Assembly: GCA_046327815.1 (NCBI GenBank) | Contig: JAXLXR010000015.1 | Coordinates: forward strand, 28,073-92,072 | DNA: 64,000 nt | Source of the DNA: Candidatus Eiseniibacteriota bacterium | Lineage (GTDB): Bacteria > Eisenbacteria > RBG-16-71-46 | Direction of reading: 5' to 3' | Part shown: positions 20,331-52,380 of the stretch, piece after piece | Layout of the letters: each line of letters starts with the position of its first letter | How positions within the stretch are numbered: position 1 is the first letter of the stretch | Notes under the pieces: model-generated | Databases searched by the model: none | What the model saw: the letters and a program-made list of their open reading frames with translations, nothing else | Told to the model about the DNA's origin: nothing | Program-made: the position numbers and the translations under genes

Positions 20331-20352
20331 GGGGCGCTCCTTCGCGATGGTT

Positions 20353-24332: not shown

Positions 24333-24575
24333 GGTTTCCTCGGTGGTCAACGCGGTCGGACCGCGATTGACGCGGCTTCGCGCGTCATGCGGGGTCGGAA
24401 TGGGCGCGCAAGTTAGCACGAAGTCCCGGACCGGGGCATGCCGGGCGCGATTTTCTCCCCAACGGGAGAACAGAGAGACCGCCGCAGGTGCTTTTCGGCC
24501 GCAGGAGCCCCCGACTTGCGCCTCAGATGCACTTCGCCCGCCCGCGGACTCACCCTCTCCCACCGCCGGAAAACC

Positions 24576-26305: not shown

Positions 26306-26306
26306 G

Positions 26307-28531: not shown

Positions 28532-28535
28532 TGCC

Positions 28536-31256
28536 TCAGCGCCGCGGCATGAGCGAGCGGAAGTTGGTCACGACCTCGAGCTTCGTTCCACTCGCCACCA
28601 TGGCCGTGCGCCGCACGGCCAGGAAGCGCTCCCCGGACGCGTCCACGTCCCAGGTGCAGTTCTCGGGATTCTGTGAGGACAGGGGCAGCGCGAACAGCGC
28701 CTTCGGCATGCCGGCATGGAAGCTCGTGCCGGCGTCGATGTCCACCGACATGACGTGCCCGTCGCTGGCCTCGAACAGCAGTTCCCGGCCGCCCTTGGTC
28801 CAGCGGGGCTGCATCGAGCGGGGCGAGCCCACCAGCCAGCGGCCGGGCTCCCCGCCCAGCGAAGTGACGTAGATCGCGAAGTTCGACGACTGGCCTTCGA
28901 CCGACGCCACGAAGCGGCCGTCGGGCGACACCACCGCGTGCCCGCGCATCGAGGTGCTGTCCACCAGTGCGCGGACCAGCGGCGGGTTCGCGTTCATGTC
29001 GATCCGCCAACCGACGTAGCGGCTCGTCTCGTGGGCGAGGATCGTGTTGCTGCCCGCGTGCCACTGAGTCAGGTAGTAGCCGCGCGAGTCCAGCACGAGC
29101 GAATCCTGCTGCCCCATGCCGTCCGCCGGGGCCGTGCGGAGCACGGTGGGCCTGCCGGGAACGACCTGCGTGTACGCGAAGCGGCGGCCGTCGGGCGACC
29201 AGACGGGCCTGAGCGCCGATCCGCCGGTGAACGAAAGCTGCGTCTCGGCCGAGCGCGCCAGGTCGAGCAGCGCGATCTCGCCGCCGGAGTTGAGGGACGA
29301 GGCGCGGCGTTCGACCAGCACGCGCTCGCCGTCCGGCGAGAGCCGCGGGTTCGCGAACACTCCGGACGCGAGCGGCGTGTCCGGAGTGGTGTGCCCCTGC
29401 CGATCGAGCCGGACGAGCTGGAGGTTGTCCGTGCCGGTGTCCGAGATCAGCGCCAGCGAGCCGTCGCGCGCGGTGGAGAAGTGCCCGCGCGCCGCCCCGA
29501 TGCGCAGGCGGTCCACGAGCGTGACGCGATCGCCCACGAGCTTGCCGGCACGCAGGTCGAGTTTCTGCGCCACGAGGCTGTTGCCGCGCACGTAGGCGAT
29601 CCAGCCTTCCCCGAGGTACTCCGCGCGGCCATTCACGTCGGCGAGGTACCTCGATTCGAGCGAGCCGAGCTTGCCGAGTCGCAGGTGGCCTTCCTCCGGC
29701 GACACCACACCCTCGAACAGGAAGTGCTCGCCGTCGGGCAGGAAGCTGGGCCAGGCCGCGCCGATCTCGTGCCTCGCGCGATCGATGGTCGAGGCAGGCG
29801 CCAGTTCACCGCCCCGCGCCGACACGACGCGCAACGAGTCGGTGGACGCGCCGTCGAGCAGGATCATGCCCTTCGTGCTCCACGAGAGGTCGGCGCCGCC
29901 GGGGGCGGGACACACGAGATCGGGCACGCCGCCGGCGACCGGCAGGCGGAACAGCCGGCCGTCGCGCGTGAACGCGATGTCGTGCCCGTCGGGCGACCAC
30001 ACGAATCGATTCGCGCCCTCGGCTCCGGGAATCGGGTGCGCGTCGGGCTCACCGAAGCGCTGCAGGTAGGGGATGTTGCGGTTCGCCGAGTCGCGCGTGG
30101 TGAACGCGATCGCGCGCCCGTCGGGCGACAGCCGCGGCCAGTAGGACTCGACCGCGCCGGGGACCGCCGACGGCACGGCGAAGCGATAGACGGGTGGAGC
30201 GGCGGTGAGCTTCGGCCACGCCCACGCACCGAACCCGAGCAGCGCCGCCGCGAAGACGCCCGCGACGATCCAGCCCGCGCGGCCGCCGCGCGCCGCGGCC
30301 GTGCGCACGACCGGCTGCGCCTGCACCGCCGACAGCGTGCTCACCGGCGCCATGCCGAGCCCCTCGGCCAGCCACTGCAGCTGCAGCTTGGCGTCGTGCG
30401 CGGTCTGGATGCGCTCCTCGGGATCCTTCGCGAGGCACGCGCGCACGAGCTTGTCGAGACCGGCGGGCGGCGCGCTCGGGAGCCCCGACGCCGAGATGCT
30501 CTCGCCGATCGGCGCGGGTTCGCGCTCGAGAATGGCGGCGATCAGCGACGCCTGGCTGCGGCCTTCGAACGCGCGGCGGCCGGTGGCCATTTCGTACAGC
30601 ACGCAGCCGAACGCCCAGAGGTCGCTGCGCGTGTCGGCCTCGCGGCCCTCGAGCTGCTCGGGCGACATGTACTGGAACGTGCCGACGATCGCGCCCTCGA
30701 CCGTGAGCGGCGACGCCACCGTCGGGTGCTGCGTGAGGGCGCCCATCGTGGCGCCGCTGGCGCTGACCGGTCCCGCGCCGGCGACCGCGCGCGCGAGCCC
30801 GAAGTCCATGAGCTTCGCGCCCGAGCGCGTCACCATGACGTTGCCGGGCTTCAGGTCGCGGTGTACCACGCCCGCGCGGTGCGCGCGATCGAGCGCGTCG
30901 GCGATCTGCACGCCGAAGCGCACCAGTTCGGCCGCCGCCAGCGGGCCGCGGCGCAGGCGCTCGGCGAGCGTCTCGCCTTCGACCAGTTCCATCACGAGGT
31001 AGTCGGTCTCGCCCTCGCGCCCGACGTCGAACAACGTGCAGATGTTCGGGTGGTTGAGCCCCGAGACGGTCTTCGCCTCGCGCTCGAAGCGCGCGCGCAC
31101 TTCGGCGTTCGCCGAAAGGTGCGCGGGCAGCACCTTGATCGCGACCTCGCGGCCGAGCCGCGTGTCGCGCGCGCGATAGACCTCGCCCATGCCGCCCGCG
31201 CCGAGCGGGGCGACGATTTCGTAGGGACCGAGCCGGGTGCCGGGTTCGAGCGTCAT
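28536..31256 (-). CDS. Ser/Thr protein kinase (Hanks-type) with a TM helix and a C-terminal TolB/PD40-type beta-propeller ectodomain
   Basis: Start MTLEPGTRLGPYEIVAPLGAGGMGEVYRARD at 31256, making an ATGA overlap with the upstream kinase. VAIK, HRDLKPGNV, DFGLA, SPEQ motifs. TM segment AGWIVAGVFAAALLGFGAWAW. The C-terminal ~500 aa are PD40/TolB-like propeller repeats (SPDG...R.AF motifs). Confidence 0.9.
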   Translation of the reverse strand: MTLEPGTRLGPYEIVAPLGAGGMGEVYRARDTRLGREVAIKVLPAHLSANAEVRARFEREAKTVSGLNHPNICTLFDVGREGETDYLVMELVEGETLAERLRRGPLAAAELVRFGVQIADALDRAHRAGVVHRDLKPGNVMVTRSGAKLMDFGLARAVAGAGPVSASGATMGALTQHPTVASPLTVEGAIVGTFQYMSPEQLEGREADTRSDLWAFGCVLYEMATGRRAFEGRSQASLIAAILEREPAPIGESISASGLPSAPPAGLDKLVRACLAKDPEERIQTAHDAKLQLQWLAEGLGMAPVSTLSAVQAQPVVRTAAARGGRAGWIVAGVFAAALLGFGAWAWPKLTAAPPVYRFAVPSAVPGAVESYWPRLSPDGRAIAFTTRDSANRNIPYLQRFGEPDAHPIPGAEGANRFVWSPDGHDIAFTRDGRLFRLPVAGGVPDLVCPAPGGADLSWSTKGMILLDGASTDSLRVVSARGGELAPASTIDRARHEIGAAWPSFLPDGEHFLFEGVVSPEEGHLRLGKLGSLESRYLADVNGRAEYLGEGWIAYVRGNSLVAQKLDLRAGKLVGDRVTLVDRLRIGAARGHFSTARDGSLALISDTGTDNLQLVRLDRQGHTTPDTPLASGVFANPRLSPDGERVLVERRASSLNSGGEIALLDLARSAETQLSFTGGSALRPVWSPDGRRFAYTQVVPGRPTVLRTAPADGMGQQDSLVLDSRGYYLTQWHAGSNTILAHETSRYVGWRIDMNANPPLVRALVDSTSMRGHAVVSPDGRFVASVEGQSSNFAIYVTSLGGEPGRWLVGSPRSMQPRWTKGGRELLFEASDGHVMSVDIDAGTSFHAGMPKALFALPLSSQNPENCTWDVDASGERFLAVRRTAMVASGTKLEVVTNFRSLMPRR

Positions 31257-33934
31257 TTCCTCTCCGTCTTCTCGTTCTGCCATCCGGTGACCACGGTGAG
31301 ACTGCGCTGGTAGGAGCCTTCCGGCGCCAGCGCGAGCATGCGACCGTCGGCGAGCAGGCACACCGCGCTCACTTCACGCGGAATCGTGCACACGACGCGC
31401 GGCGCTCCGACCGACGGCGAGGGCGTGAGGTTCACGTCCACCGCCATGAGCTGGTAGCCGTCACCACCGACGTAATACAGGCGGCGATCGTCGGCGCGCC
31501 ACGCCACCGCCGCCAGCGGCCCTTGCAGCGTCGAGTTCGCGGGACCGACCCGCACGGCCTGCGTGTGCGCCGGGAAGCCGTCCACGTACAGCTCGTTCCG
31601 TCCCGAGGCGTCGCTCACGTACGCGAGCGCGCGTCCGTCGTGCGACAGCGTGGACATGCTCTCGGCGGCCTTCGTCGCGAGCCACGGCACGGGCCGGGCG
31701 CCCGGCTTCCACGGGAGCACCTGGATGTCCATGCGCGCGCCCTCGGTGGTCGCGTCCATCACGAGCGTGCCGCCGTCGGGCGTCCAGCTCGACCCCACGC
31801 GCCAGACGTTGTCACCCAGCTCGACGCTGCTGTCGGCGCCGGACGCGGGGTCCAGCTGCCGCACGCCCGAGATCGTCGCGCCGACGAGGCGGTTGCCCGC
31901 GGGCGTCCAGATCGGGAACTGCACGCCCTTGCCGGACGGAGCGACCTGCGCCACTTCGCCCGTCTCGAGATCGCCGATCCAGTTGGCGAAGTTGTTCGCG
32001 TCCGTCACGGCGATCGCGATACGCCGGCCGTCGGGCGAGAGTGCGCACACGCCCGAAGGAATCGGGAAGCGCACGCGCGTCGGGGTGAGCCGGCCGTCGT
32101 CCTCGACCCAGCTCACGCCCGAAGGACGCTGGTCGCGCGACACGTACACCAGCCGGCCGTCGAGTGAACTGCTCACGGGGGGAGCCAGCTGGACGCCGCC
32201 CTGCAGCTCCGGCTGGTCCTCGAGCAGCCGCGGCTCGCCGATCGGCCGGCACGCGCGCAGGTCCACGCGTTGCACGAGCAGCGCGCGGTCGCGCGTGAAC
32301 ACGACGAGGTCGGGCGCCGCGAACGCCACCGCGTTGCTGCTCTCCAGGAGCGCGCGGGTCGGCGCGCCGTCGGCCGTCCCCATGCGGATCTCGGCGGTCT
32401 GGCCGCTGGTCACGCTGTTGACCGCGAAAAGGAAGTGTTTGCCGTCGGGAAGGAACACGGGGAAGCGGTGTGACATGTCGCCCCGCGCGGTGTTCGGCCA
32501 CGTGACCTGGCGCGGCGCGCCGCCCGCCGCGGCGACCACCCAGAGTCCGCCGCGCGCGTCGGGCGCGAAGACGATCCGGCCTTCCGCGCCCCAGGCGCCA
32601 CCGCGGCCGTTCGACGCCTCGCACACCGTCAGCACGGCGCCACCGGCCGCGGCGATCTTACGCAGCCGGCCGTCGGAAAAGAACCCGACCTGTCGCGAGT
32701 CGGGCGACCAGAACGGCCACGTCGCGCCCTCGGTGCCGTCGAGCCGCCGCGCTTCGGTGTCACCGAGACCGCGCACGTAGAGGCGCACGGTGCTCGAGCT
32801 GTCGCTCATGGAGAACACGAGCGTGCGGCCGTCCGGCGAAATCGCGTACGAGCCGATGTCGCCGAGCTCGCCGTCCTGCTCCGTGGGAAGCAGCGAGAGC
32901 CGCGTGACGTCGCCGTCGTTCGCGGAACGGCGCAGTGGCAGGAGCACGCCCAGGGCGAGACCGGCGAGCGCGACGGCGACGAGCGCGAGTCCGTGGCGCC
33001 AGCCGGCTCGGCGTGGCGCCGGCGCGCTCGCGGGCGCGGTCGCCTCGGGCGCGAAGCCGGCGGGCTCGGCGGGCGCCATCCCGCTCGCGAGCACGATGCG
33101 CGCCTCGCCGATGTCGCGCAGGCGCGCGCGCGCGTCCTTGGTGAGGCAGCGCTTGAGCAGCGCCTTGACGTGCGCCGGTGTGTTGGCCGGCAACGCGCTC
33201 CACTCGGGGTCGCGCTCGAGGATACGCGCGACCATGTCGCTCACGGTCTCGCCCTCGATCATGCGCCTGCCGCAGAGGCACTCGTACAGCACGCAACCGA
33301 ACGACCAGATGTCCGTGCGGCGGTCCACGTGCTTGCCGCGCGCCTGCTCGGGGCTCATGTAGGCGGCGGTGCCGAGGATCACGCCGACTCCGGTCGCCGC
33401 GTAGGTCATGGTCGGCGACGCGCTCAGGTCGCCAGCGGGCGCCGCGCCGTCGGGGGCACTGGACTTCGCGAGCCCGAAGTCGAGCACCTTCACCGTGCCG
33501 TCGCTCTTCAGCATGACGTTGCCGGGCTTGAGGTCGCGGTGGATCACCCCGGCCTCGTGCGCCGCTTCGAGCGCGGTCGCGATTTGGGCGCACACCTCGA
33601 GCGCCTCGCCGGCCGGCAGCGCTCCGCGCGAAAGTCGCATCTGCAGCGTCTCGCCTTCGATGAACTCGAGCACGAGGTGACGCCGGCCCTCGACCACCTC
33701 GAGCCCGAAGATGCTGCCGATGTTCGTGTGCTGCAGCGAAGCGAGCAGCTTGGCCTCGCGCTCGAAGCGCGCGACGCGCTCGGCGTCGTTCTCGAAGCCC
33801 TCGGGCAGCGCCTTGATCGCCACGTCGCGGCCGAGGCGTGTGTCGCGCGCGCGGTACACCTCGCCCATGCCGCCCGCGCCGAGCGGGGCGACGATTTCGT
33901 AGGGACCGAGCCGGGTGCCGGGTTCGAGCGTCAC
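31253..33934 (-). CDS. Ser/Thr protein kinase with a TM helix and a C-terminal TolB/PD40-type beta-propeller ectodomain
   Basis: GTG start (GTGA overlap with the upstream gene). MTLEPGTRLGPYEIVAPLGAGGMGEVYRARDTRLGRDVAIKAL, HRDLKPGNVM, DFGLAK. TM segment GLALVAVALAGLALGVLLPL. Propeller repeats (SPDGR..A, SPDSR..GF). Confidence 0.9.
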   Translation of the reverse strand: MTLEPGTRLGPYEIVAPLGAGGMGEVYRARDTRLGRDVAIKALPEGFENDAERVARFEREAKLLASLQHTNIGSIFGLEVVEGRRHLVLEFIEGETLQMRLSRGALPAGEALEVCAQIATALEAAHEAGVIHRDLKPGNVMLKSDGTVKVLDFGLAKSSAPDGAAPAGDLSASPTMTYAATGVGVILGTAAYMSPEQARGKHVDRRTDIWSFGCVLYECLCGRRMIEGETVSDMVARILERDPEWSALPANTPAHVKALLKRCLTKDARARLRDIGEARIVLASGMAPAEPAGFAPEATAPASAPAPRRAGWRHGLALVAVALAGLALGVLLPLRRSANDGDVTRLSLLPTEQDGELGDIGSYAISPDGRTLVFSMSDSSSTVRLYVRGLGDTEARRLDGTEGATWPFWSPDSRQVGFFSDGRLRKIAAAGGAVLTVCEASNGRGGAWGAEGRIVFAPDARGGLWVVAAAGGAPRQVTWPNTARGDMSHRFPVFLPDGKHFLFAVNSVTSGQTAEIRMGTADGAPTRALLESSNAVAFAAPDLVVFTRDRALLVQRVDLRACRPIGEPRLLEDQPELQGGVQLAPPVSSSLDGRLVYVSRDQRPSGVSWVEDDGRLTPTRVRFPIPSGVCALSPDGRRIAIAVTDANNFANWIGDLETGEVAQVAPSGKGVQFPIWTPAGNRLVGATISGVRQLDPASGADSSVELGDNVWRVGSSWTPDGGTLVMDATTEGARMDIQVLPWKPGARPVPWLATKAAESMSTLSHDGRALAYVSDASGRNELYVDGFPAHTQAVRVGPANSTLQGPLAAVAWRADDRRLYYVGGDGYQLMAVDVNLTPSPSVGAPRVVCTIPREVSAVCLLADGRMLALAPEGSYQRSLTVVTGWQNEKTERK

Positions 33935-36630
33935 TTGCGCATCAGTCCTTCCCAGTGCTGGACCAGCAGGATCGCCGTACCGTTGGAGGGATCCTTGTCG
34001 CGAGCGACGAGGAAGCGCTCGCCGTCAGCGGTCGTGAGGCTGTTGAACCCCGAAGGGACTTCGAACAGCCGCGCGGGCGTGCCCGCACGCGGGCCATTCG
34101 CGCCGAGTTCGAGGGGTACGCTCATGACGCGGTACTCGGCGTCCACGTAGATGAGCTCGTCGCCGCCGCGTCCCCAGAAGAGGAAATCGTCCTTCAACGC
34201 CGCGCCCGAGAAGACCTGGAACCGCTGCCCGGGCCGCGGCCACGAATCCACGATCAGGTCCAGGCGGCCCTGGGCACGCCCCATGTACGCGACCCAGCGG
34301 CCATCGGCGGACAGTGCGCTCCGGCGCTCGAGGAACGCCGAGTCCGTGTAGCGCTCGGGCTCGGCCCCGGCGGCCGGAACGCGCCACAGGTCCCAACTGC
34401 TCTGCGCCCCGGTGCCGGACGCGACGAGCGCCGAGACGAGCAACGAGCCGTCCGGCGCCCAACCGGCGGCTTCCTGGAACACGGCGCCCTTCACGCCCGA
34501 GGCTTCGCGCGCGCCGCCGCCTCCGACGTTCATGAGCACGACGTCCTCGCGCCCGTCCTGCTTCGCCGTGGCCGCCACGCGGCGACCGTCGGGCGAGAAC
34601 ACCGCCATCTCGACCGGATCCACGTGGTCGAGCAGGCGCGTCGGCACGCCGCGCTCGAGGTCCACCTGCCAGAGCGCCGAGTTCCCGGTCACGAGCGCCG
34701 TGCGCCCGTCCTGCGACACCGAACGCACGATCCAGTCCGACTCCGGAACCGGCACCGTCCCCACCGGAGCGCCCCGGCGATCGAGCCACTCGAGCCGCGA
34801 AATCGGCGTCGGCAGCCAGGGCAGTACCAGCTTGCCGTCCGCCGATGCGCTCGCGGGTAGTTCGCCGTCCATGTCGCCCGGCGGGGAGGCGTCGCCGATG
34901 GTGACGGGAGCGCCGCGAGTCTTCAACGCGCGCAGGTCGAAGTCCTGCGCCATGAGCTTGCCGCCACGCACGAAGAGCAGCCGGCCCGAAGGCGTGCAGA
35001 GCGCGCCGCTCTCGGCGCGCAGCACTTCGTGGGAGCTCGTCGAGCGGATCGAGCCCACGTGGATCGGAAAGCCCTCCGGCCCCGCCGGCAGCACCGTGAA
35101 GAGGAAGTGTTCGCCGTCCGGCAGGAAGCTCGGGAAGCGGTGCGAGACTTCGCCGCGGGTGGAATCGAGCACCGTCGCCGGCCTCACGGCCCCACCGTTC
35201 GCGGCGACCTGCGAGAGTCCGCCCGTCGGAGTGGGCGCGAACACGATCACACCCTGCTTGCCCCACGTCAGGCCGCGCGGGTCCACGAACGGGCACAGCC
35301 GCGCCGGCGCCCCGCCCGCGACCGAGACGGTCGAGACCAGCTTCTGGCGCGTGTCGAAGTACGCGAGCGAGCGACCGTCCGGAGACCAGCAGGGCTGCAT
35401 GCCCCCCGCCGTCTGCGGCAGCGCCGAGGGCGCCACGCGCTCGAGCGGCAACAGCCAGAGCTGCTGCAGGGTGGCCTCGTCGCTCGCGGACACCGCGACG
35501 ACCGTGCGTCCGTCCGGCGAGATCGCTCCGACGGTCCAGTAGTCCGGAAGGCGCATGCCCTTGGGCAGCGGCACCTGCGTGGTCGTCGTCGCCTCGGGCG
35601 CGCGGAACCACCGCGAGCCCACGAGCGCGCCAGCCGCGAGCGCCAGCAACGCGAGCGCGGGCAGCACCCACGCGGGCGCGCCGGCGCGGCGCGCGCCGGC
35701 GGCGACCGAAGCAGCGCCCGCCGCGCTCACACCCGACGCCACTTGCGAACCCGCTTCACCCATCCACCCCAGCTGCAGCCTCACGTCGTGCGCGGTCTGG
35801 ATGCGGTCGTCGGCGTCCTTGGCGAGCAGCGCGTTCACCAGCCGCTCGAGCGCAGGCGGGCTCATCGGCGCGAGCGAGACGAGCGGCGCGGGCTGGCTGC
35901 CCATGATCGCGGTGATCAGCGAGGCCTGGCTGCGGCCCTCGAACGCACGCCGGCCGGTGGCCATTTCGTACAGCACGCAGCCCAGCGCCCAGAGGTCGCT
36001 GCGGGTGTCGGCCTCGCGGCCCTCGAGCTGCTCGGGCGACATGTACTGGAACGTGCCGACGATCGCGCCTTCGGCCGTCAGTGGCGACGCCACCGTCGGG
36101 TGCTGCGTGAGCGCGGCCATGGTGGCGCCGCTGCCGCTCACCGGGCCGGCGGCCGCCGTCGCGCGCGCGAGCCCGAAGTCCATGAGCTTCGCGCCCGAGC
36201 GCGTCACCATGACGTTGCCGGGCTTCAGGTCTCGATGCACCACGCCCGCGCGATGCGCGCGGTCGAGCGCGTCGGCGATCTGCGCGCCCAGCCGCAGCAC
36301 GTCCGCGATCGGCAGCGCGCCCTTGAGCAGCCGCTGCGAGAGCGTCTCGCCCTCGACCAGCTCCATCACGAGGTAGTCGGTCTCGCCCTCGCGGCCGACG
36401 TCGAACAGCGTGCAGATGTTCGGGTGGTTGAGCGAGCTGACCGTCCTCGCTTCGCGTTCGAAGCGCGCGCGCACCTCGGCGTTCGCCGAGAGGTGCTGCG
36501 GCAGCACCTTGATCGCCACGTCGCGGCCGAGCCTCGTGTCGCGCGCGCGGTACACCTCGCCCATGCCGCCCGCGCCGAGCGGGGCGACGATCTCGTAGGG
36601 ACCGAGCTTCGTGCCGGGCGCGAGCGTCAC
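33931..36630 (-). CDS. Ser/Thr protein kinase with a TM helix and a C-terminal TolB/PD40-type beta-propeller ectodomain
   Basis: GTG start VTLAPGTKLGPYEIVAPLGAGGMGEVYRARD at 36630 (GTGA overlap). The track's 117-aa N-terminal extension is rejected as R/P/A low-complexity. Kinase motifs conserved. TM PAWVLPALALLALAAGALVG. Confidence 0.85.
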   Translation of the reverse strand: MTLAPGTKLGPYEIVAPLGAGGMGEVYRARDTRLGRDVAIKVLPQHLSANAEVRARFEREARTVSSLNHPNICTLFDVGREGETDYLVMELVEGETLSQRLLKGALPIADVLRLGAQIADALDRAHRAGVVHRDLKPGNVMVTRSGAKLMDFGLARATAAAGPVSGSGATMAALTQHPTVASPLTAEGAIVGTFQYMSPEQLEGREADTRSDLWALGCVLYEMATGRRAFEGRSQASLITAIMGSQPAPLVSLAPMSPPALERLVNALLAKDADDRIQTAHDVRLQLGWMGEAGSQVASGVSAAGAASVAAGARRAGAPAWVLPALALLALAAGALVGSRWFRAPEATTTTQVPLPKGMRLPDYWTVGAISPDGRTVVAVSASDEATLQQLWLLPLERVAPSALPQTAGGMQPCWSPDGRSLAYFDTRQKLVSTVSVAGGAPARLCPFVDPRGLTWGKQGVIVFAPTPTGGLSQVAANGGAVRPATVLDSTRGEVSHRFPSFLPDGEHFLFTVLPAGPEGFPIHVGSIRSTSSHEVLRAESGALCTPSGRLLFVRGGKLMAQDFDLRALKTRGAPVTIGDASPPGDMDGELPASASADGKLVLPWLPTPISRLEWLDRRGAPVGTVPVPESDWIVRSVSQDGRTALVTGNSALWQVDLERGVPTRLLDHVDPVEMAVFSPDGRRVAATAKQDGREDVVLMNVGGGGAREASGVKGAVFQEAAGWAPDGSLLVSALVASGTGAQSSWDLWRVPAAGAEPERYTDSAFLERRSALSADGRWVAYMGRAQGRLDLIVDSWPRPGQRFQVFSGAALKDDFLFWGRGGDELIYVDAEYRVMSVPLELGANGPRAGTPARLFEVPSGFNSLTTADGERFLVARDKDPSNGTAILLVQHWEGLMRK

Positions 36631-41992: not shown

Positions 41993-42297
41993 GCGGCCGT
42001 CGGGGTGGATGTCGTGTGGGTCGGGCCACGGCGGGGGCCGGGCCTGCAGCAGGGAACCAGTACGTCTCGCCAACGAGAATCGAGGTCGCTTTCGAGAAGT
42101 GGTGGGCCGACTGACACATCACCCATCCTCGCGCGCAGGGGCGTGCGCACGGGTCCGCCGCTCCGGGCGAGCACCGGGTGCGGAAGGCCCGCCGACACTA
42201 CCCGAGCGGCGCAGGTGGCGACACGAAAATCTGCGGCGCCGGCCGCCTCGACGAATGACTTTGCGCTCGCGCGCCACTGCCCTATCGTGCCGCGCGC

Positions 42298-44586: not shown

Positions 44587-44640
44587 CCGGCGCCGGTTTC
44601 GCCGCACGTTTTCTGCTGCGCCGCGCGACCCCGCGCCGCT

Positions 44641-47409
44641 ATGGTGCCGCCCATGCCCTATTGCTCGCAGTGCGCTCAGGCGTTGTCCGACGCCGCGAAG
44701 TTCTGTCCCGCCTGCGGCGCCGCCGTGGTGCCGCCGACCGCGGTGCCCGCGCCGCACGCGGCCACGAAGCCCGCGCCCACGCGCGCGGCCTCCGACGCGC
44801 CGGTCACGGCCGACCTCACGCGCACCTCCGACCCGAACGCCGCGCCGAGCCTGCCGCCCACCTCGGGCGATCACGGCCGCTTCGAGCCGGGCACGCGGCT
44901 CGGCACGCGCTGGCGCATCGTCGGCCTGCTCGGCCGCGGCGGCATGGGCGAAGTCTATCGCGCCGACGACCTCGAGCTGGGCCAGTCGGTCGCGCTCAAG
45001 TTCCTGCCCGCATCCGTGGCGAACGACTCGCGCGAGCTCGCGCGCTTCCGCAACGAAGTGCGGGTCGCGCGGCAGATCGCGCACCCGAACGTCTGCCGCG
45101 TGTACGACATCGGCGAAGTGGACGGGCACGTATTCCTGTCCATGGAGTACATCGACGGCGAGGACCTCGCCTCGGTGCTGCGCCGCATGGGCCGGCCGAC
45201 CGAGGACAAGGCGGTCGAGATCGCACGCCAGGTCTGCCTCGGGCTCGCGGCCGCGCACGAAGCCGGCATGCTGCACCGCGACCTGAAGCCCGCGAACATC
45301 ATGATCGACGGCCGCGGCCGCGCGCGCATCACCGACTTCGGGCTCGCGGGGCTCGCGAGCGAGCTGGCGCGCGGCGGGCAGGTCGCGGGCACGCCCGCGT
45401 ACATGGCGCCCGAACAGCTCGCCGACGGCACCGTGAGCGTGCGCAGCGACGTCTATTCCCTCGGGCTCGTGCTGTACGAACTGTTCACGGGCAAGCGCGT
45501 GTTCGAGGCGAAGAGCATCGCCGAACTGCGCCAGCAGCACGACTCCAGCTCGATCACCTCGCCCAGTTCGCTCGCGCGCGGCATCACGCCGGCCGTCGAG
45601 CGACTGATCCTGCACTGCCTCGAGCGCGACGTGGACCTGCGCCCGCCGTCGGCGTACGCCGTGCTCGGTGCGCTGCCGGGCGGCGATCCGCTCGCCGCGG
45701 CGATGGCCGCCGGCGAGACGCCGTCGCCCGAACTCGTCGCGAACGCGGCCGAACGCGGCGGGCTCTCGCCACTTCACGCGCTGGCGCTGCTCGTCGTGCT
45801 CGCCGGCGCCCTCGCGGGGCTCGGCGCCATGCTCGGACCGGAGTTCCGGCCGCTCAAGCAGCCCGCCGCCAAGCTCGAGGTGCGCGCGGAGGAAGTGTTG
45901 CGCAAGACCGGCGCGTTCGACGAGCTGCCTGCGCACACCGCCGGCACGTTCTCGCAGAACGACGCCTACCTCGAACATCTCATGAAGGAGAAGCGCGCGC
46001 GCGCCGGCGAGTACGGCACGGCCTTCTACTGGCAGCGCTGGGCGCCGCGGCTGATCGAGAATCCGCGCCTGCACGCCGAGGTCCCGAACCCGGTCGCGCC
46101 CGCGACGCTCGGCAACAGTTCGGCGATCGTGCTGCTCGACCCGAACGGCCGCCTGGTCGGGCTGCGCGCCGAGCCGCCGGACACCGTGAAGGCCCGCAAC
46201 GGCGGGCGGCCGGACTGGAACGGCTGGTTCGCGGCCTTCGGAATGGACAGCAATGCCTACACGCCGGTGCCACTCGTACGCCCCGTGCCCGCGCTCTGCG
46301 ACACCGCGATGGCGTGGCACGGGCCGTCGCCGTGGACCGGAGGCGACACGGCCACGGTACAGATGGGCGCCTCCCGTGGACGGCTGACGCATTTCACGGT
46401 GGTGAGCGACTGGGGCGTGACGAATACGCCGGTGGACGAGCTCGCCCCCGTCACCACGGGACCGTTCGATTTCCTGCTCGAGCTGTTCCTCGACGTGCTG
46501 CCGTACGTGCTCTCGGTCTATTTCGCGTGGCGGAACCTGAAGCTCGGACGCGGCGACTGGCGAGGCGCCACGCGCATCGCGGTGTTCGTGTTCTTCATGA
46601 ACATCGGCGAAGCCGTGTTCTCGAACCGGCTGTCCGAAGTGGGCGTGACCGGCCTGCTCGGCGACCTGTTCAGCGGACGAGCGCAGGGCCACTCGTTGAT
46701 CCACGCGATGGGCATGTGGTTCGCCTACGTGGCGCTGGAGCCCTACGTGCGCCGGTTGTGGCCTCGGCTGCTCGTGTCGTGGACGCGGCTGCTGTCGGGC
46801 CGCTTCCGCGACCCGCTCGTGGGCCGCGACCTGCTCGTGGGCGCCGCGCTCGGCGCGGCCGTGTCCGCACTCTCGATCGCGAACTACGCGATCGCGCCCA
46901 AGCTCGGGCTCGGCTGGGTGCCCGCGCTGGCCTCGTTCTCGCAGTTCGAGGCGCTCACGCCCGGCTACCTGTCGGTCGGGCTCTGCTACTCCGGCTCGAT
47001 CTGCGTGCTGAACGTGCTGCAGGCGCTCTTCGTCCTGCTCATGCTGCGCCTGCTGCTGCGCCACACCGGCATCGCGCTCGCGGCGTGCTTCACGCTGTTC
47101 GCGCTGTCGAACGCCTCGGGTGCCGCGCCGCAGATCGGCTGGAAGCTGGCGCTGCTCGTCGGGATCTGGGGATCGCTGAGCTTCGTGCTGATCCTGCGCG
47201 TGGGCCTGCTCGCCACGGTCGTGGCGGCGTGGACGGGGCTCGTGCTCTCCTATGTGGCCGCGACGCTCGACTTCGGCTCGTGGTACGGCGGGATCGCGCT
47301 GCTGCCGATGGCGCTCGTGTTCGGCATCGCCTCCTGGGGCGCGGTGAACGCGCTCGCGGGCAAGTCGATCCTCGGAGATCCGCTGGAGGAAGCCCCGCGC
47401 GCGAAGTGA
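44641..47409 (+). CDS. Ser/Thr protein kinase with an N-terminal zinc-ribbon and a C-terminal polytopic membrane domain
   Basis: N-terminal CSQCAQ...CPACG zinc-ribbon. Kinase domain LGRGGMGEVYRADD...VALKFL...HRDLKPANIMI...DFGLAG...APEQ. TM LHALALLVVLAGALAGLGAML. Then a ~330-aa region, and a C-terminal cluster of at least six hydrophobic helices (LSVYFAW..., IAVFVFFM..., LALLVGIWGSLSFVLIL..., ALLPMALVFGIASW). Confidence 0.8.
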   Translation: MVPPMPYCSQCAQALSDAAKFCPACGAAVVPPTAVPAPHAATKPAPTRAASDAPVTADLTRTSDPNAAPSLPPTSGDHGRFEPGTRLGTRWRIVGLLGRGGMGEVYRADDLELGQSVALKFLPASVANDSRELARFRNEVRVARQIAHPNVCRVYDIGEVDGHVFLSMEYIDGEDLASVLRRMGRPTEDKAVEIARQVCLGLAAAHEAGMLHRDLKPANIMIDGRGRARITDFGLAGLASELARGGQVAGTPAYMAPEQLADGTVSVRSDVYSLGLVLYELFTGKRVFEAKSIAELRQQHDSSSITSPSSLARGITPAVERLILHCLERDVDLRPPSAYAVLGALPGGDPLAAAMAAGETPSPELVANAAERGGLSPLHALALLVVLAGALAGLGAMLGPEFRPLKQPAAKLEVRAEEVLRKTGAFDELPAHTAGTFSQNDAYLEHLMKEKRARAGEYGTAFYWQRWAPRLIENPRLHAEVPNPVAPATLGNSSAIVLLDPNGRLVGLRAEPPDTVKARNGGRPDWNGWFAAFGMDSNAYTPVPLVRPVPALCDTAMAWHGPSPWTGGDTATVQMGASRGRLTHFTVVSDWGVTNTPVDELAPVTTGPFDFLLELFLDVLPYVLSVYFAWRNLKLGRGDWRGATRIAVFVFFMNIGEAVFSNRLSEVGVTGLLGDLFSGRAQGHSLIHAMGMWFAYVALEPYVRRLWPRLLVSWTRLLSGRFRDPLVGRDLLVGAALGAAVSALSIANYAIAPKLGLGWVPALASFSQFEALTPGYLSVGLCYSGSICVLNVLQALFVLLMLRLLLRHTGIALAACFTLFALSNASGAAPQIGWKLALLVGIWGSLSFVLILRVGLLATVVAAWTGLVLSYVAATLDFGSWYGGIALLPMALVFGIASWGAVNALAGKSILGDPLEEAPRAK

Positions 47410-47419
47410 CGCGCGCGGG

Positions 47420-50128
47420 CTACTTCGCCTTCAGTCCGCGCTTCCAGTCCGAGACCAAAACCACGGGCGCCGCGCCTTCGGAGGCGAGCGCGTTGACCAG
47501 GATGTGCTCGCCGTCCGGCGAAACCGCGAAGCTGCGGCTGGTCGGTCGCACGATCGCGCGGAACAGCACGCCTTCCTCTCCCGCGTGGCCGTCGCGCCGG
47601 TCGAACGGCACCGAGCACACCGCGCCGTCGGCGCGTACGTAGACCAGTTCGCGATCGTCCAGGCCCCAGCACGGGATCGCGCCTCCGTGGAACGTGGCCT
47701 GCACCCGCGGACCGTCGACTCCGCCGATCGCCCACGACGCCGGGCGCACGTACACCTCGGGATTGCCCGAGTCGTGCGACGCGGAATACGCGAACCAGCG
47801 CCCGTCGTGAGAGAAGCGCCCGAACGTCACGCCCCCCGGAATCGCGGCGATCGGCCGCGACGCCGAGCCGTCCACGGGCACGAACAGCAGGGAGTCGCCC
47901 ACGTAGCTCGCGGCCGATCCGAGCACCGCGACGACGCCGCTGCCGTCGGGCGCCCAGTCGAGCGCCCACGCGTCGCGCGGCGACACCCGCACGAGCCGCG
48001 GCGGCACGCTGCCGTCGAGCGGCACGAACACGGGCGAGTACGGGCCGAAACGTGACGCGGGCTGGCGCGCGAACGTGACCCAGCGGCCGTCGCGGCTCGC
48101 GATCGGCATGTTGTCGTCGTCCTCGCCGGTCGTGATCGGGCGCACGGTGCCACGCGCGAAGTCGAACTGGTAGACGTCGGCATTCGGCTTCTCGGCCCAC
48201 GCGAACAGGAAGCTGCGCCCGTCGGGCATGAACTCGACGTCGAAGAAGTTGCCGCTCCTCGGCACGGTCGTCGTGCGGTGGCCGGTGCGGTCGTAGAGCC
48301 ACACGCGGCTGCCCTGGTCGCCACCGTTCGCCTGGTACGCCAGCAGCCCGCCGGCCGCGGAGAAGTTCATCTTCCACGTGGACAGGTCGAACTGCACGCG
48401 TTCGGCCGTCGGGTACGAGTCGCCTTGGAGCCGCCGCGAGCCCGCATCGAACGGCTGCGCCATGAGCACGCTGTCGCGCACGAAGAACAGGCGCCCCTCG
48501 GCATAGACCGCGTCGGTGAGGTTGTCGAACAGCCGGCGGTTCTCGCGGCCGTCCACCGACGCGACCCAGACCGAGTTGTTCGGGCCCGCCGGCGCGTCGT
48601 GCGATCCGGCGAAGTACAGGAAGTGCTTGCCGTCGGGAAGCAGGGACGGCCAGCGCAGCGTGGTGAAACGCGTCGTGTCGAGCGGCACCGCGAGCTGCGG
48701 CGTGCCGCCGCTCGCCTTCACGCGGTAGATCGCCGACTGGTAGTAAGGCGAAAAGAGGATTTCGTCGTCCTTCGCCCACGTCCCGCCCCGCCCCGCCTGC
48801 GCTTCGCAGATCGCGAGCACCTGCCCCGTCGCGAGGTCCACGCGCCGCAGCTTGAGACCGGCGAAGAATCCCAGCGAGCGGCCGTCGTACGACCAGAACG
48901 GGAACGTCGCGTTCTCGGTCCCCGGCAGCGGCCGCGCGACCAGCTCGTCCACGTCGCGCACCCACAACCGCGCGCCGACCTCGTTGTCCACCGCGACGAA
49001 CGCCAGCCGCGTGCCGTCGGGCGACAGCACGGGCGGTCCGGCGTTGTCGCCCGTGAACAGGAACACCGCGTTCGGCGGCGGGTTCACCACCGCGCGCAGT
49101 GCCGTGCGCGAGGGCGCCGGGCGCCACGTGGCGAACGCACCCCAGCCGAGCGCGGCCACCGCGAGCGCCGCCAGGGCGGGCACCGTCCACGCACTCGCGC
49201 GACGCGGCGTGACTGCGGCGGAAGGCGCGCCGGCCTGCGAGCCGCCGCCGCCCTCGCCCAGCCACTGCAGCTGCAGCCGCACGTCGTGCGCGGTCTGGAT
49301 GCGCTCGTCGGGCTCCTTGGCGAGCAGAGCGGTCACGAGGCGCGCGAGCGGCGGCGGGCTCATCGGCGCGAGCTCGGCGAGCGGTCGCGGCGTGTCGCGC
49401 ATGATCGCGCTGATGAGCGACGCCTGCGTGCGGCCTTCGTACGCGCGCACGCCCGTGATCATCTCGTACAGCACGCAACCGAACGCCCACAGGTCGCTGC
49501 GCGCGTCGGCCTCGCGGCCTTCGAGCTGCTCGGGCGCCATGTACTGGAACGTGCCGACGATCGCGCCTTCGGCGGTGAGCGGCGACGCCACGGTCGGGTG
49601 CTGCGTGAGCGCGGTCATGGTGGCGCCGCTGCCGCTCACGGGCCCGGCGGCGGCCGTGGCGCGCGCGAGGCCGAAATCCATGAGCTTGGCGCCCGAGCGC
49701 GTCACCATGACGTTGCCGGGCTTGAGATCGCGGTGCACCACGCCCGCGCGGTGCGCGCGGTCGAGCGCGTCGGCGATCTGCGCGCCGAGCCGCAGCACGT
49801 CGGCGAGCGGGAGCGCGCCACGGCGCAGCCGGGCCGCGAGCGTCTCGCCCTCGACCAGCTCCATCACGAGGAAGTCGGTCTCGCCTTCGCGCCCGACGTC
49901 GTGCAGCACGCAGATGTTCGGGTGGTTCAGCCCCGAGATGGTCTTCGCCTCGCGCTCGAAGCGTGCCCGCACCTCGGGGTGCGCGCTCAGGTGCTGCGGC
50001 AGGACCTTGATGGCGACCTCGCGGCCGAGCCGTGCGTCGCGGGCGCGGTACACCTCGCCCATGCCGCCGGCGCCGAGCGGCGCGACGATTTCGTAGGGGC
50101 CGAGCTTCGTACCCGCGGCCAGCGTCAT
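47420..50128 (-). CDS. Ser/Thr protein kinase with a TM helix and a C-terminal TolB/PD40-type beta-propeller ectodomain
   Basis: MTLAAGTKLGPYEIVAPLGAGGMGEVYRARDARLGREVAIKVL. Kinase motifs conserved. TM AWTVPALAALAVAALGWGAFA. Propeller repeats (SPDGTRLAF, SYDGRSLGF, LPDGKHFLYF). Convergent with 44641..47409, with only ~10 nt between the stops. Confidence 0.9.
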   Translation of the reverse strand: MTLAAGTKLGPYEIVAPLGAGGMGEVYRARDARLGREVAIKVLPQHLSAHPEVRARFEREAKTISGLNHPNICVLHDVGREGETDFLVMELVEGETLAARLRRGALPLADVLRLGAQIADALDRAHRAGVVHRDLKPGNVMVTRSGAKLMDFGLARATAAAGPVSGSGATMTALTQHPTVASPLTAEGAIVGTFQYMAPEQLEGREADARSDLWAFGCVLYEMITGVRAYEGRTQASLISAIMRDTPRPLAELAPMSPPPLARLVTALLAKEPDERIQTAHDVRLQLQWLGEGGGGSQAGAPSAAVTPRRASAWTVPALAALAVAALGWGAFATWRPAPSRTALRAVVNPPPNAVFLFTGDNAGPPVLSPDGTRLAFVAVDNEVGARLWVRDVDELVARPLPGTENATFPFWSYDGRSLGFFAGLKLRRVDLATGQVLAICEAQAGRGGTWAKDDEILFSPYYQSAIYRVKASGGTPQLAVPLDTTRFTTLRWPSLLPDGKHFLYFAGSHDAPAGPNNSVWVASVDGRENRRLFDNLTDAVYAEGRLFFVRDSVLMAQPFDAGSRRLQGDSYPTAERVQFDLSTWKMNFSAAGGLLAYQANGGDQGSRVWLYDRTGHRTTTVPRSGNFFDVEFMPDGRSFLFAWAEKPNADVYQFDFARGTVRPITTGEDDDNMPIASRDGRWVTFARQPASRFGPYSPVFVPLDGSVPPRLVRVSPRDAWALDWAPDGSGVVAVLGSAASYVGDSLLFVPVDGSASRPIAAIPGGVTFGRFSHDGRWFAYSASHDSGNPEVYVRPASWAIGGVDGPRVQATFHGGAIPCWGLDDRELVYVRADGAVCSVPFDRRDGHAGEEGVLFRAIVRPTSRSFAVSPDGEHILVNALASEGAAPVVLVSDWKRGLKAK

Positions 50129-52380
50129 GGCTTCACCCTCCCGAACACCTCACGCACGCGTGGATCCGCGAGCAGGTCGTCGAAGAACGGCATGTGCGGG
50201 GCGACGACGAAGATCGAGTCGCGCTCCTCGTAGCCGCGCTCGGTCCATGCGAGCGCCTCGTCGGCGAGCCCCGCCGCGCACGCCGCCTTGGCGATCATGA
50301 GCGGCGAGAGCACTTCCCAGCGCGCACGTGCCGTCATCTCGTCGTGGATCGCGCGCGCATCTTCCGGCCGCCCGAGCTTGCCCGCGAGCCACGCGAGCGC
50401 GCCGAGGATCCAGGGATGCCGCCCGCTCGACGCCAGCCGGCGGCGCCCGAACGCCTCGGCCTCCTCGTGCGCTCCCGCCCACGACAGCGCGCGCACCAGG
50501 TTCCACTGCGCGAACGTCGAGTCCTCGTCCTTCGCGGCCGCACGACGTGCGACGGCGAGTGATTCGGCGTGGTACCCCGCATGACCGACCACGAACGAGT
50601 GCATGCCCAGCGCCCACGAGTTCTCGGGGTCGGCGGCGACGGTGGCCTCGGCTTCGCGCAGGGCTTCGTCGATCGGCACCGTGCCGAGCGCCCAGCCCCA
50701 GAGCGCGCGCTCGAGCCGCGCACGCGTGTGGCGCGGGTCGAGCGCGAGCGTACGCTGCCACAGCGCCTCGGCTTCGGCCGGCTTCCACTCGTACTGCGCC
50801 TCGATGTCGGCGAGCGTCGCGAGCGCCTCGGGCAGGTGCGGCTGCAGCGCCAGCGCGCGCTGGGCGAGTGCCTTGGCCTTCGGGTACAGCTCTCGCGGGT
50901 GCCCGACGCCGAACGTGCCGAGCAGGCGCCACGAGTCGGCGAGCCACGCGAGCGCCTCGGCGTACCCGGGATCGAGCGCGACCGCCTGCTCGAACAGGTC
51001 GATCGCATCCATCAGGTAGCGGCCGCGGCGCAGCTGCAGCGCTCGGCCCTTGAGGAACAGTTCGTACGCGCGCACGTTCTTCGTGCCGTGGCGCGACGCC
51101 TCGCTCCCGCCGAGCGACAGCCGGAGCTTCTCGGAGATCGCCGCGGCGATCTCGTCCTGCACCGCGAACACGTCGGTCAGTTCGCGATCGTAGCGTTCGG
51201 ACCACAGCGTGAGACCGTCGTTCACGTTCACGAGCTGCACCGTCACGCGCAGCCGCGCGCCGGCGCGGCGCACGGTGCCTTCGAGCACGGTCTGCACGCC
51301 GAGCTTCGCGCCCACCGTGCGCGGGTCCTCGCGACGGCCCTTGAACGCGAAGCTCGACGAACGTGCGGCTACGCGCAGGCCCTTGAGCTGCGCGAGCGCG
51401 TTGAGGATCTCGTCGCTCATGCCGTCGGCGAAGTACTCGTCGTCGGCGCCGCCCTGGTTCTCGAACGGCAGCACCGCGAGCGAATGCGCGGCCTCGGCTC
51501 CGGCGCCGGCCGCCGGTCGCGACGCGGCCTCCGCCAGTTCAAGCCGCACGTCGCGAATGTCGCGCGGGCGTTCGTCGGCGTTCTTGCGCAGGCAGCGGCG
51601 CAGCAGTTCGGTCACCCGCGGCGGCGTGGCCGCCGGCAGCGCGGCCCAGTCGGGTTCGCGCTCGAGGATGCGCGCGAGCAGGTCGGTCACCGTCTCGCCT
51701 TCGAACGGCGGACGGCCCGCGAGGCACTCGTAGAGCACGCAGCCGAACGACCACACGTCGCTGCGGCGGTCCACCGCGCGGCCGCGCGCCTGCTCGGGGC
51801 TCATGTACGCCGCGGTACCCAGGATCACGCCGGCCTCGGTCGGCGAGGCCGAAATGCTGCGCGTGACGTCGTCGTGCGAAGCCGTGCGCGGCGGCTCGGC
51901 GAGCTCGGACTTGGCGAGCCCGAAGTCGAGCACCTTGGCGATGCCCGACGACGTCACCATGACGTTGCCCGGCTTGAGATCGCGATGCACGAGGCTGCGC
52001 TCGTGCGCGGCCTCGACGGCGGCGGCGACCTGCCCGGCGAGCGCGAGCGCCTCGCCCACCGGCAGCGCACCGCGGCCCAGCCGCGCGGCCAGCGTTTCGC
52101 CTTCGACCAGCTCGAGCACGAGGCAGGGCGCTTCGCCCGACTCCTCGAGCCCGTAGATCGCCGCGACGTTCGGGTGGTTGAGCGCGGCCAGCGCCATGGC
52201 TTCGCGCCGGAAGCGTGCGAGCCGCTCGGCGTCGCGCGAGAAGGCGGCCGGCAGCACCTTGAGCGCCACGTCGCGGCCCAGCCGCGTGTCGCGGGCGCGA
52301 TACACCTCGCCCATGCCGCCGGCGCCCAGGGGCGCGACGACTTCGTAGGGGCCGAGGCGGGTGCCGGGGGTCAGTGGCAT
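50125..52380 (-). CDS. Ser/Thr protein kinase with a C-terminal TolB-N-like alpha/beta module and TPR repeats
   Basis: MPLTPGTRLGPYEVVAPLGAGGMGEVYRARD, HRDLKPGNVMV, DFGLAK. Followed by LAVLPFENQGGADDEYFADGMSDEILNALAQLKGLRVAARSSSFAFKG (the same module as in 42298..44586) and TPR-like helices to the C-terminus. The stop makes an ATGA overlap with the start of 47420..50128. Confidence 0.85.
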   Translation of the reverse strand: MPLTPGTRLGPYEVVAPLGAGGMGEVYRARDTRLGRDVALKVLPAAFSRDAERLARFRREAMALAALNHPNVAAIYGLEESGEAPCLVLELVEGETLAARLGRGALPVGEALALAGQVAAAVEAAHERSLVHRDLKPGNVMVTSSGIAKVLDFGLAKSELAEPPRTASHDDVTRSISASPTEAGVILGTAAYMSPEQARGRAVDRRSDVWSFGCVLYECLAGRPPFEGETVTDLLARILEREPDWAALPAATPPRVTELLRRCLRKNADERPRDIRDVRLELAEAASRPAAGAGAEAAHSLAVLPFENQGGADDEYFADGMSDEILNALAQLKGLRVAARSSSFAFKGRREDPRTVGAKLGVQTVLEGTVRRAGARLRVTVQLVNVNDGLTLWSERYDRELTDVFAVQDEIAAAISEKLRLSLGGSEASRHGTKNVRAYELFLKGRALQLRRGRYLMDAIDLFEQAVALDPGYAEALAWLADSWRLLGTFGVGHPRELYPKAKALAQRALALQPHLPEALATLADIEAQYEWKPAEAEALWQRTLALDPRHTRARLERALWGWALGTVPIDEALREAEATVAADPENSWALGMHSFVVGHAGYHAESLAVARRAAAKDEDSTFAQWNLVRALSWAGAHEEAEAFGRRRLASSGRHPWILGALAWLAGKLGRPEDARAIHDEMTARARWEVLSPLMIAKAACAAGLADEALAWTERGYEERDSIFVVAPHMPFFDDLLADPRVREVFGRVKP

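Follow-up and report, generated by a model that had tools for sequence, protein, structure and literature searches.

A contiguous array of nine Hanks-type kinase genes in Candidatus Eisenbacteria, with signs of exchange between kinase domains

The 64,000-nucleotide (nt) window examined here, the whole stretch analysed from contig JAXLXR010000015.1 of a Candidatus Eiseniibacteriota assembly (GCA_046327815.1), contains nine consecutive genes for Hanks-type serine/threonine kinases, here called K1 to K9, among which neighbouring genes combine similar, in one case nearly identical, kinase domains with strongly divergent ectodomains. The array occupies 28536-52380 (all coordinates count from the first nucleotide of the window unless stated), where 98.5% of the sequence is coding, leaving 369 of 23,845 nt non-coding. 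At ~72% G+C raw lists of open reading frames (ORFs) are noisy, so the kinases were located by motif and their starts chosen at a conserved N-terminus. Six-frame translation gave nine occurrences each of the HRD motif (as the pattern HRDLKPxN) and of the DFG motif, all within 28.5-52.4 kb; a kinase-domain hidden Markov model (HMM) likewise gave nine matches, none outside the array, and no tenth kinase was found anywhere in the 64-kb window. An earlier reading of the bare DNA letters (the original prediction) had proposed nine consecutive kinases over ~24 kb, and motif, ORF, Pfam and kinase HMM evidence agree on them, with nothing else in the span. By our arithmetic such a row would be expected ~2e-7 times per genome if kinases made up 5% of ~5000 genes. 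Eight of the nine proteins are identical to NCBI entries MFN8588962-67, -69 and -70, all named 'protein kinase' and located on a 93,875-nt contig of a Candidatus Eisenbacteria metagenome-assembled genome (MAG); K1 corresponds to MFN8588962.1, and K7 presumably fills the gap in the MFN8588962-70 accession run.

The genes are arranged in three co-directional units. On the minus strand, five genes run in the order K5>K4>K3>K2>K1: K5 (39317-41992, 891 aa) is the first, followed by K4 (36627-39320, 897 aa), K3 (33931-36630, 899 aa), K2 (31253-33934, 893 aa, with a GTG start) and finally K1 (28536-31256, 906 aa). K6 (42298-44586, 762 aa) and K7 (44641-47409, 922 aa) form a plus-strand unit, K6>K7, and a second minus-strand unit, K9>K8, convergent with K7, consists of K9 (50125-52380, 751 aa) and K8 (47420-50128, 902 aa). 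For K7, PGAP places the start four codons later, at 44653, giving 918 aa. All five minus-strand internal junctions are ATGA or GTGA stop/start overlaps within a conserved AA[A/G]TGACGCT motif (K2, for example, overlaps both K3 and K1 by 4 nt, as K9 does K8), in agreement with the overlapping codons foreseen for the five same-strand genes, and unit length within the K5-K1 run is regular (2672-2696 nt). The 305-nt divergent region between K5 and K6 (41993-42297) presumably holds the promoters of both units, and a promoter scan found no match to the sigma-70 consensus in it. The N-terminal motif described as common to all nine genes is exact in seven and slightly altered in K6; the K7 copy has diverged and lies ~80 residues inside the protein.

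All nine proteins match Pfam Pkinase (E 1e-45 to 1e-55; 155-187 bits against a gathering cut-off of 31.7). The G-loop, VA[IL]K, alphaC Glu, HRDLKPxN, DFG and [AS]PE elements are kept in all of them, and by these motifs the nine kinases are predicted to be catalytically complete and not pseudokinases. The closest solved relatives of the kinase domains are Mycobacterium tuberculosis PknB and PknA. Activation loops in K1-K6, K8 and K9 are 45-50 residues long, about twice the usual length, and rich in Ser, Thr, Ala and Gly, while that of K7 is of normal size (27 residues). The K5 loop (e.g. residues 152-197) is disordered in a structure model, with a per-residue confidence (pLDDT) <50 at residues 156-188.

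In K1-K5 and K8 the kinase domain is followed by a transmembrane (TM) helix and a PD40/TolB-like propeller. PD40 scores above the Pfam gathering threshold in all six, TM prediction places a single hydrophobic segment in each at aa 308-345 (aa 327-345 in K1), and the K5 model (pLDDT 88.2) shows a kinase (aa 1-290), a TM helix (aa 307-326) and an all-beta ectodomain (aa 336-881). In the model the ectodomain (~550 residues, ~46 strands) probably comprises two propellers, and its best structural matches are TolB-type propellers. The six proteins are a cytoplasmic PknB-like kinase joined by one TM helix to an extracytoplasmic all-beta TolB-like propeller, the topology being predicted; three lines of evidence (Pfam, TM prediction and the K5 model) uphold the earlier claim of six such genes, and the ectodomains are of propeller type, by both PD40 and structural matches, rather than of some unrelated fold. 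Across 101 aligned and otherwise divergent ectodomains, a motif HRFPxFLPDG (K5 residues 483-492, window ~40517-40546) is nearly invariant and W442, G465 and P486 (K5 numbering) are invariant; the motif may be a binding or structural site that the first propellers have in common.

The term 'receptor kinases', applied earlier to the entire array, fits K1-K5, K7 and K8, which have a TM helix, and does not extend to K6 and K9. In these two, no segment outside a beta-strand module opening with SLAVLPF has a Kyte-Doolittle mean >1.6, hence no TM helix, and both are predicted to be soluble kinase-TPR proteins, not membrane receptors. Their layout is a kinase, the ~120-residue SLAVLPF module and then TPR repeats (Pfam); in K6, NCBIfam TPR_END_plus is also above cut-off, the only curated NCBIfam model to reach its cut-off on the kinases scanned. 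The TPRs had thus been correctly foreseen, and the TolB-N-like label given to the module comes from sub-threshold matches: TolB_N (PF04052) in K9 (E=0.013, 16.1 bits against 22.4, spanning profile positions 8-103 of 106) and, in K6, the related FlgO model only (E=0.003, 18 bits against 22.6). JGI names homologues 'TolB-like protein/TPR', which lends the label weak support. As had been proposed for one gene, K7 carries a zinc ribbon and a polytopic membrane tail, by Pfam and TM prediction. Its N-terminal zinc ribbon and kinase are followed by a TM segment (aa 380-398), a PepSY-like extracytoplasmic domain and a polytopic helical membrane domain, with about six more TM segments after the first. 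K6, K7 and K9 are separate families, each conserved full-length in many genomes; in the K9 family full-length identity is 60-78% among >120 proteins, and full-length K7 orthologues occur in four phyla.

Comparison of neighbouring propeller kinases allowed us to set the history of the kinase domain against that of the ectodomain. Overall, identity is 50-99% in the kinase and 27-34% in the ectodomain; for K1, K3 and K8 the figures are 82-87% and 28-32%, and for K4 and K5 they are 98.9% and 30%. In the K4/K5 pair the likeness takes the form of an 859-nt tract (K4 copy 38452-39310, K5 copy 41124-41982, both on the minus strand) that covers codons ~4-289, the kinase domain, with six differences, five of them synonymous (99.3% nt identity). 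Directly beyond both ends nt identity falls to ~45-50%, so that the edges of the tract are the borders of the kinase domain. At four-fold degenerate sites the difference is 0.02 for the K4/K5 kinases against a plateau of ~0.28 for other kinase pairs. Since protein constraint cannot account for identity at such sites, the tract points to recent gene conversion or segment replacement. Its direction can be read from orthologues: identity to the shared K4/K5 kinase is 81-87% for the kinases attached to orthologues of the K4 ectodomain (themselves 61-63% identical to that ectodomain) and no more than 51-73% for those attached to relatives of the K5 ectodomain, from which we infer that K4 was the donor and K5 the recipient. 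Short identical 5′ runs also join K1 to K2 and K2 to K3 (p<=0.001, in a permutation test that ignores site-to-site constraint), and the first 77 nt of K2 equal those of K1 apart from the start codon. This signal is weaker than that of the K4/K5 tract because codon bias contributes to it: the first ~100 nt are highly identical across all paralogues, partly from strong codon bias on invariant residues.

Neighbour-joining trees (100 bootstraps), built separately for the kinase and ectodomain parts, conflict in a similar way. The kinase tree has two deep clades and pairs K4 with K5 (bootstrap 100) and K3 with K8 (93). In the ectodomain tree, K1 groups with P0124 and L164_C, K4 with L164_A, P0020, P0032 and P0098, and K8 with P0033, all proteins of other genomes and each group with a bootstrap of 100. 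K8, K3 and K5 carry a kinase of the clade opposite to that found in the relatives of their ectodomains; K3 and K8, for example, have clade I kinases, while the ectodomain relatives of K3 and the K8 ectodomain sister P0033 have clade II kinases. The earlier proposal that adjacent genes share one output kinase and carry diverged ectodomains is therefore sound as a description, with the addition that the very similar kinase domains appear to derive at least partly from recombination. Likewise, the choice posed earlier between birth-and-death and conversion, for which these phylogenies had been suggested as a check, does not fall to one side, as signs of both are present.

The ectodomains are old lineages that group with orthologues in other genomes and not with their neighbours, and these lineages are kept across genomes at 46-63% identity. 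A view of selection within them comes from L081, an ENA contig of independent assembly. Between the window and L081, omega is 0.017 for the K1 kinase (dS 0.23), 0.18 for the K1 ectodomain (dS 0.25) and 0.17 for the K2 ectodomain (dS 0.067), and by the K1 and K2 values the ectodomains are under purifying, not diversifying, selection and hence functional. In the same comparison dS is about four times higher in K1 (0.23-0.25) than in the adjoining K2 ectodomain (0.067), which suggests a between-strain recombination breakpoint near the K2/K1 junction. These results bear on the 'diversified sensor battery' of the original prediction: the array, the propeller folds and an adjacent gene for an FHA-PP2C protein (below) are real, but local duplication followed by ectodomain diversification finds no support in the tree or in omega values of 0.17-0.18. 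They also bear on the idea of a rapidly diversifying, immune-like or anti-phage receptor battery whose ectodomains track variable targets. Such a battery would fit the low identity between neighbouring ectodomains, the varying content of the locus among relatives and the strong matches of the kinase domains to the PADLOC PD-T4-6 and mad6 models. We nevertheless hold it to be highly improbable, given the low omega and cross-genome conservation of the ectodomains, the restriction of PADLOC and NCBIfam defence matches to the generic kinase domain (the PADLOC models carrying no cut-off), and flanks made up of housekeeping genes (2-oxoglutarate dehydrogenase, amylases), not of a defence island or mobile element. 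We accordingly rejected the anti-phage kinase systems (PD-T4-6, MADS Mad6, BREX PglW) as generic kinase homology: matches are confined to kinase residues ~5-330, the NCBIfam scores fall short (MAD6 137-176 bits, cut-off 460; PglW 80-99 bits, cut-off 990), and no BREX or MADS partner genes were found in the array flanks.

Related loci show how the gene content of the array has changed. Contig L165 (GCA_044222365.1) shares with the window, at 82% nt identity, a flank containing the E2 and E1 genes of 2-oxoglutarate dehydrogenase and a PA/FlgD_ig protein gene. Beyond this flank it has a K1 orthologue divergent from a K7 orthologue and, between K7 and a K8 remnant, a methyltransferase gene that is absent from the window. 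The remnant (L165 13595-14987, minus strand; homologous to window 47441-48351 and 49656-50135) retains residues 1-162 and 583-902 in different frames, with residues 163-582 deleted. A K3-like gene, inside which the contig ends, overlaps it by 4 nt, and a K3-type gene beside K8 fits the sister relationship of the K3 and K8 kinase domains. As far as the L165 locus is sequenced, it has no K2, K4, K5 or K6. The nearest K9 orthologue (78% identical) stands alone among housekeeping genes elsewhere. In other ENA assemblies, including contig L164, there are three-kinase operons with 4-nt overlaps in the order K4-type > B > K1-type; in L164 (11368-15891) the operon is followed by genes for a 700-residue PD40/Tricorn_N protein, which has a signal peptide and no kinase, and for a BNR/Sortilin-type protein, both of which may be free-standing relatives of the sensor domains. 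Tandem pairs and triplets occur often in the ~160 loci used for comparison, but three kinases within 22 kb are the most in any of them. From these comparisons, birth and death of genes, their rearrangement and now and then the conversion of a kinase domain appear to shape the locus, and its nine-gene state appears lineage-specific.

Taken together, we favour the explanation that the array arose by tandem accumulation of old Hanks-kinase families, with gain, loss and rearrangement of whole units and with kinase-domain gene conversion that spared the sensor domains, and assign it a probability of about 0.6. Several observations weigh against it. Synonymous sites for K1/K3/K8 are near the plateau (0.19-0.28 against ~0.28), so that only K4/K5 shows recent exchange; recent conversion is not claimed for K1/K3/K8, where tree incongruence is the only sign. 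The K3 and K8 incongruences themselves come from trees made by neighbour joining, in which support for deep nodes is weak. In seven tandem pairs of other loci there is no recent conversion (four-fold-site differences 0.24-0.58), and the K4/K5 event is not taken as general. Within the K4/K5 tract, exact matches extend over 152 and 275 nt, longer than the k-mers that assemblers commonly use, and the phasing of the six K4/K5 differences, as well as all junctions in one genome, depend on the MAG assembly. A near-identical partial K6 (P0128, MFN8589801.1, 583 residues) is present on another contig of this MAG, 2.9 kb long, as either a binned strain variant or a second copy. Finally, the functional steps proposed below (ligand binding, dimerisation, FHA recruitment, co-transcription) are all inferred by analogy.

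The first of these observations would also suit plain tandem duplication under unequal constraint, in which the kinases stayed similar by constraint, the ectodomains drifted and recombination was unneeded. Between orthologues the kinase does evolve more slowly than the ectodomain (omega 0.017 against 0.18; 99% against 91% aa identity), tandem pairs elsewhere combine similar kinases with divergent tails and no recent exchange, and the regular units and conserved junction motif of the array, like the near-saturated synonymous sites of K1/K3/K8, are as duplication would leave them. Constraint cannot, however, yield 99.3% nt identity with five of six differences synonymous beside ectodomains that are 30% identical; moreover, for K8, K3 and K5 the sister ectodomains are joined to kinases of the other clade, the orthologues indicate K4 as donor, and every ectodomain is closer to relatives outside the genome than to any inside it. 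We therefore regard plain duplication as unlikely, if the foremost of the historical alternatives to accumulation with kinase-domain conversion.

Others of these observations concern the assembly. Paralogues scattered in the genome could have been joined or collapsed by an assembler or binner where their kinase domains are similar, which would yield the array or at least the K4/K5 near-identity, and a MAG source, the long exact repeats in the K4/K5 tract, the second partial K6 and the lack of a second member of the K2-K5 clusters in the protein collection are all compatible with this. Against it, L081 matches window 28535-32953 gaplessly at 94.4% identity, covering K1, 566 residues of K2 and the K2/K1 junction with its 4-nt overlap, and comparable overlapping three-kinase operons recur in other samples. 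The reading frame and the AA[A/G]TGACGCT motif are kept at every junction, and base composition is uniform across the region. As assembly graphs use observed k-mers, the K5 kinase/ectodomain boundary must, we would argue, be present in real reads, and a collapse would need copies already >~95% alike, which would still imply recent homogenisation. An artefact is in our judgement very unlikely, and on the consecutive NCBI accessions, the K2/K1 junction in an independent assembly and the similar three-kinase operons elsewhere, we take the assembly of the array to be real.

Upstream of K9, on the same strand and 61 nt away, lies a gene for a PAP2-family phosphatase (52442-53212; start approximate, 53212-53236; Pfam PAP2 E=5e-23) with a signal-peptide/TM-like N-terminus and a weak, below-cut-off similarity to undecaprenyl-diphosphate phosphatases. 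It is abutted by a gene, also on the minus strand (53233-54852, 539 aa), for an FHA-GAF-SpoIIE (PP2C-type) phosphatase, all three of whose domains score above Pfam gathering thresholds (SpoIIE E=1e-48, 166 bits; FHA E=1e-20, 74 bits; GAF E=3e-14, 54 bits). This gene is likely the first of a PP2C>PAP2>K9>K8 unit. The two phosphatase genes had been described as following the array; both are present, but in terms of transcription they precede the K9>K8 kinases. The only Rfam match in the window is a tRNA gene (58040-58123, minus strand).

The low-coordinate flank encodes starch/glycogen enzymes, MalK, dihydrolipoamide dehydrogenase, 2-oxoglutarate dehydrogenase E1, a PA/FlgD_ig protein and a TMEM260-like glycosyltransferase. 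The last of these, a GT-C type gene (26990-28531, plus strand) convergent with K1, is missing from the 94%-identical L081, in which K1 is directly followed by a homologue of window ~26150-26660, and L165 is only 67.5% identical there; this difference has the look of an indel between strains at the array margin. At ~4 kb from K1 (18927-24400, minus strand) are the genes for 2-oxoglutarate dehydrogenase (E3, E1 and probably E2), which are linked to the array in L165 too. The PP2C protein weakly resembles OdhI/GarA in its FHA domain (E=9e-10, below cut-off), and in Actinobacteria 2-oxoglutarate dehydrogenase is under the control of a kinase-FHA switch. By analogy, such control might operate at the array locus as well, a speculative suggestion.

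A possible mechanism for the array can be modelled on the PknB/PknD/PrkC paradigm. Each propeller ectodomain would bind a distinct periplasmic or envelope-derived ligand, upon which the kinases would dimerise and autophosphorylate the long Ser/Thr-rich activation loop. The resulting phospho-threonines could recruit FHA proteins, among them the adjacent FHA-GAF-PP2C protein, whose phosphatase domain would then reset the system. The [A/G]TGA overlaps would allow coupled translation and so the co-production of operon members, the TPRs of K6 and K9 would mediate the protein contacts by which these two act in the cytoplasm, and the PAP2 enzyme, by its weak similarity, hints at a link to envelope lipid carriers.

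Instead of sensing ligands, the propellers could serve as envelope anchors or scaffolds that position the kinases, through TolB-like binding or Tricorn/DPP-IV-like peptide handling. TolB-type propellers are indeed their best structural matches, precomputed Pfam matches include Tricorn_N, Tricorn_2nd and DPPIV_N, the near-invariance of HRFPxFLPDG suggests a common rather than diverse binding site, and a kinase-less PD40 protein follows the three-kinase operon of L164. Yet no catalytic peptidase domain is attached, the TolB equivalog model reaches 64 bits against a cut-off of 343, no TolB N-terminal domain was detected in the PD40 kinases, and distinct, individually conserved ectodomain lineages fit distinct specificities. 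We think a scaffolding role quite unlikely, and ligand sensing by distinct propellers remains our working model.

One could go further and suppose that homogenisation of the kinases is itself selected. Near-identical kinases would keep receptors that differ in their periplasmic propellers, but are co-produced by coupled translation, compatible as back-to-back heterodimers, able to cross-phosphorylate and bound to one substrate and phosphatase specificity, making of the operon a combinatorial sensor with many inputs and one output. We offer this tentatively, as an unlikely extension of the favoured explanation. If true, the operon would be a bacterial counterpart of the clustered receptor-kinase families of plants and animals, kept by concerted evolution of the output module, and 'species-specific clades' in Pkinase-only phylogenies would partly reflect conversion, not recent duplication.

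The K4/K5 tract provides a bounded, datable case of gene conversion confined to a kinase domain. Because domain-restricted conversion goes together with conflicting kinase and ectodomain trees, phylogenies of Pkinase alone, which are the usual practice, can give a wrong history for such families and count too many 'recent duplications'. Few signalling proteins of soil phyla are as abundant as those that join a kinase to a propeller or to TPRs, with at least 8000 candidates in each search. For biochemistry the locus offers a compact set, comprising six distinct conserved propeller sensors, their likeliest partner phosphatase and two soluble kinase-TPR proteins.

Real and unusually large as the array is, its proteins are of known kinds and it is no new kind of system; what it adds is the direct evidence of gene conversion restricted to a kinase domain, together with the conflict between kinase and ectodomain trees. 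The architectures have been catalogued before. PD40 is among the domains most often tethered to bacterial kinases, and kinase-PD40 was among the commonest architectures in 2010 (PMC2877116); TPR is the only accessory domain common to several bacterial kinase families (bioRxiv 10.1101/2025.01.12.632604), and a recent atlas of bacterial kinases leaves PD40 and propellers unmentioned. In the open-access literature on Eisenbacteria kinases, PD40 kinases and gene conversion in bacterial kinase domains, we came across no account of the family or of the mechanism, and none of the papers searched describes a bounded conversion tract with a direction for bacterial kinases.

Among single systems, M. tuberculosis PknD is alike in its layout of a PknB-like Hanks kinase in the cytoplasm, one TM helix and a beta-propeller outside it, the last described in the passage of PMC2877116 that cites Good et al. 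2004. PknD, however, is a single gene with one six-bladed NHL propeller, whereas the array has nine genes and PD40/TolB-type ectodomains of probably two propellers each, and the NCBIfam PknD model (NF009651) gives array kinases 124-164 bits against a cut-off of 839. The PASTA kinases PknB, PrkC and StkP belong to systems of one or two kinases, as opposed to nine, and in the array FHA, GAF and PP2C are fused in one protein. Assignment to the PASTA family was rejected: NF033483 (PknB/Stk1) scores 270-304 bits against 450, only the kinase part aligns and there are no Pfam PASTA repeats. TolB of the Tol-Pal system was likewise rejected (TIGR02800, 47-64.5 bits against a cut-off of 343), the array propellers being fused to a kinase via a TM helix and no tol-pal genes lying nearby. 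PknG-type kinases resemble K6 and K9 as soluble Hanks kinases followed by TPR repeats, but K6 and K9 have no rubredoxin domain, carry the extra ~120-residue SLAVLPF module and belong to a different kinase subfamily. For the K7 tail, the system for comparison is that of CPBP/Abi-type membrane proteins that partner with kinases (SpdC/LyrA; Rce1 fold).

As for the expansion itself, the original prediction's remark that kinase-propeller families are expanded in some soil phyla agrees with the literature. Myxobacteria and Planctomycetota have expanded sets of membrane kinases with periplasmic WD40 or TPR domains, tandem duplicates among them, and their species-specific Pkinase clades have been put down to 'duplication and/or recombination' (PMC11032199); the kinase paralogues of Solibacter, for their part, are described as old and free of positive selection (PMC3174227). 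The expansions of Planctomycetota ('Ca. Uabimicrobium amorphum'), Myxobacteria and Acidobacteria resemble the array as lineage-specific sets of membrane-spanning kinases with repeat-domain ectodomains. They differ in that theirs are WD40 domains, while the array described here is from Eisenbacteria, its propellers are of the PD40/TolB type, and recombination is visible in it as a bounded nt tract with an inferred direction.

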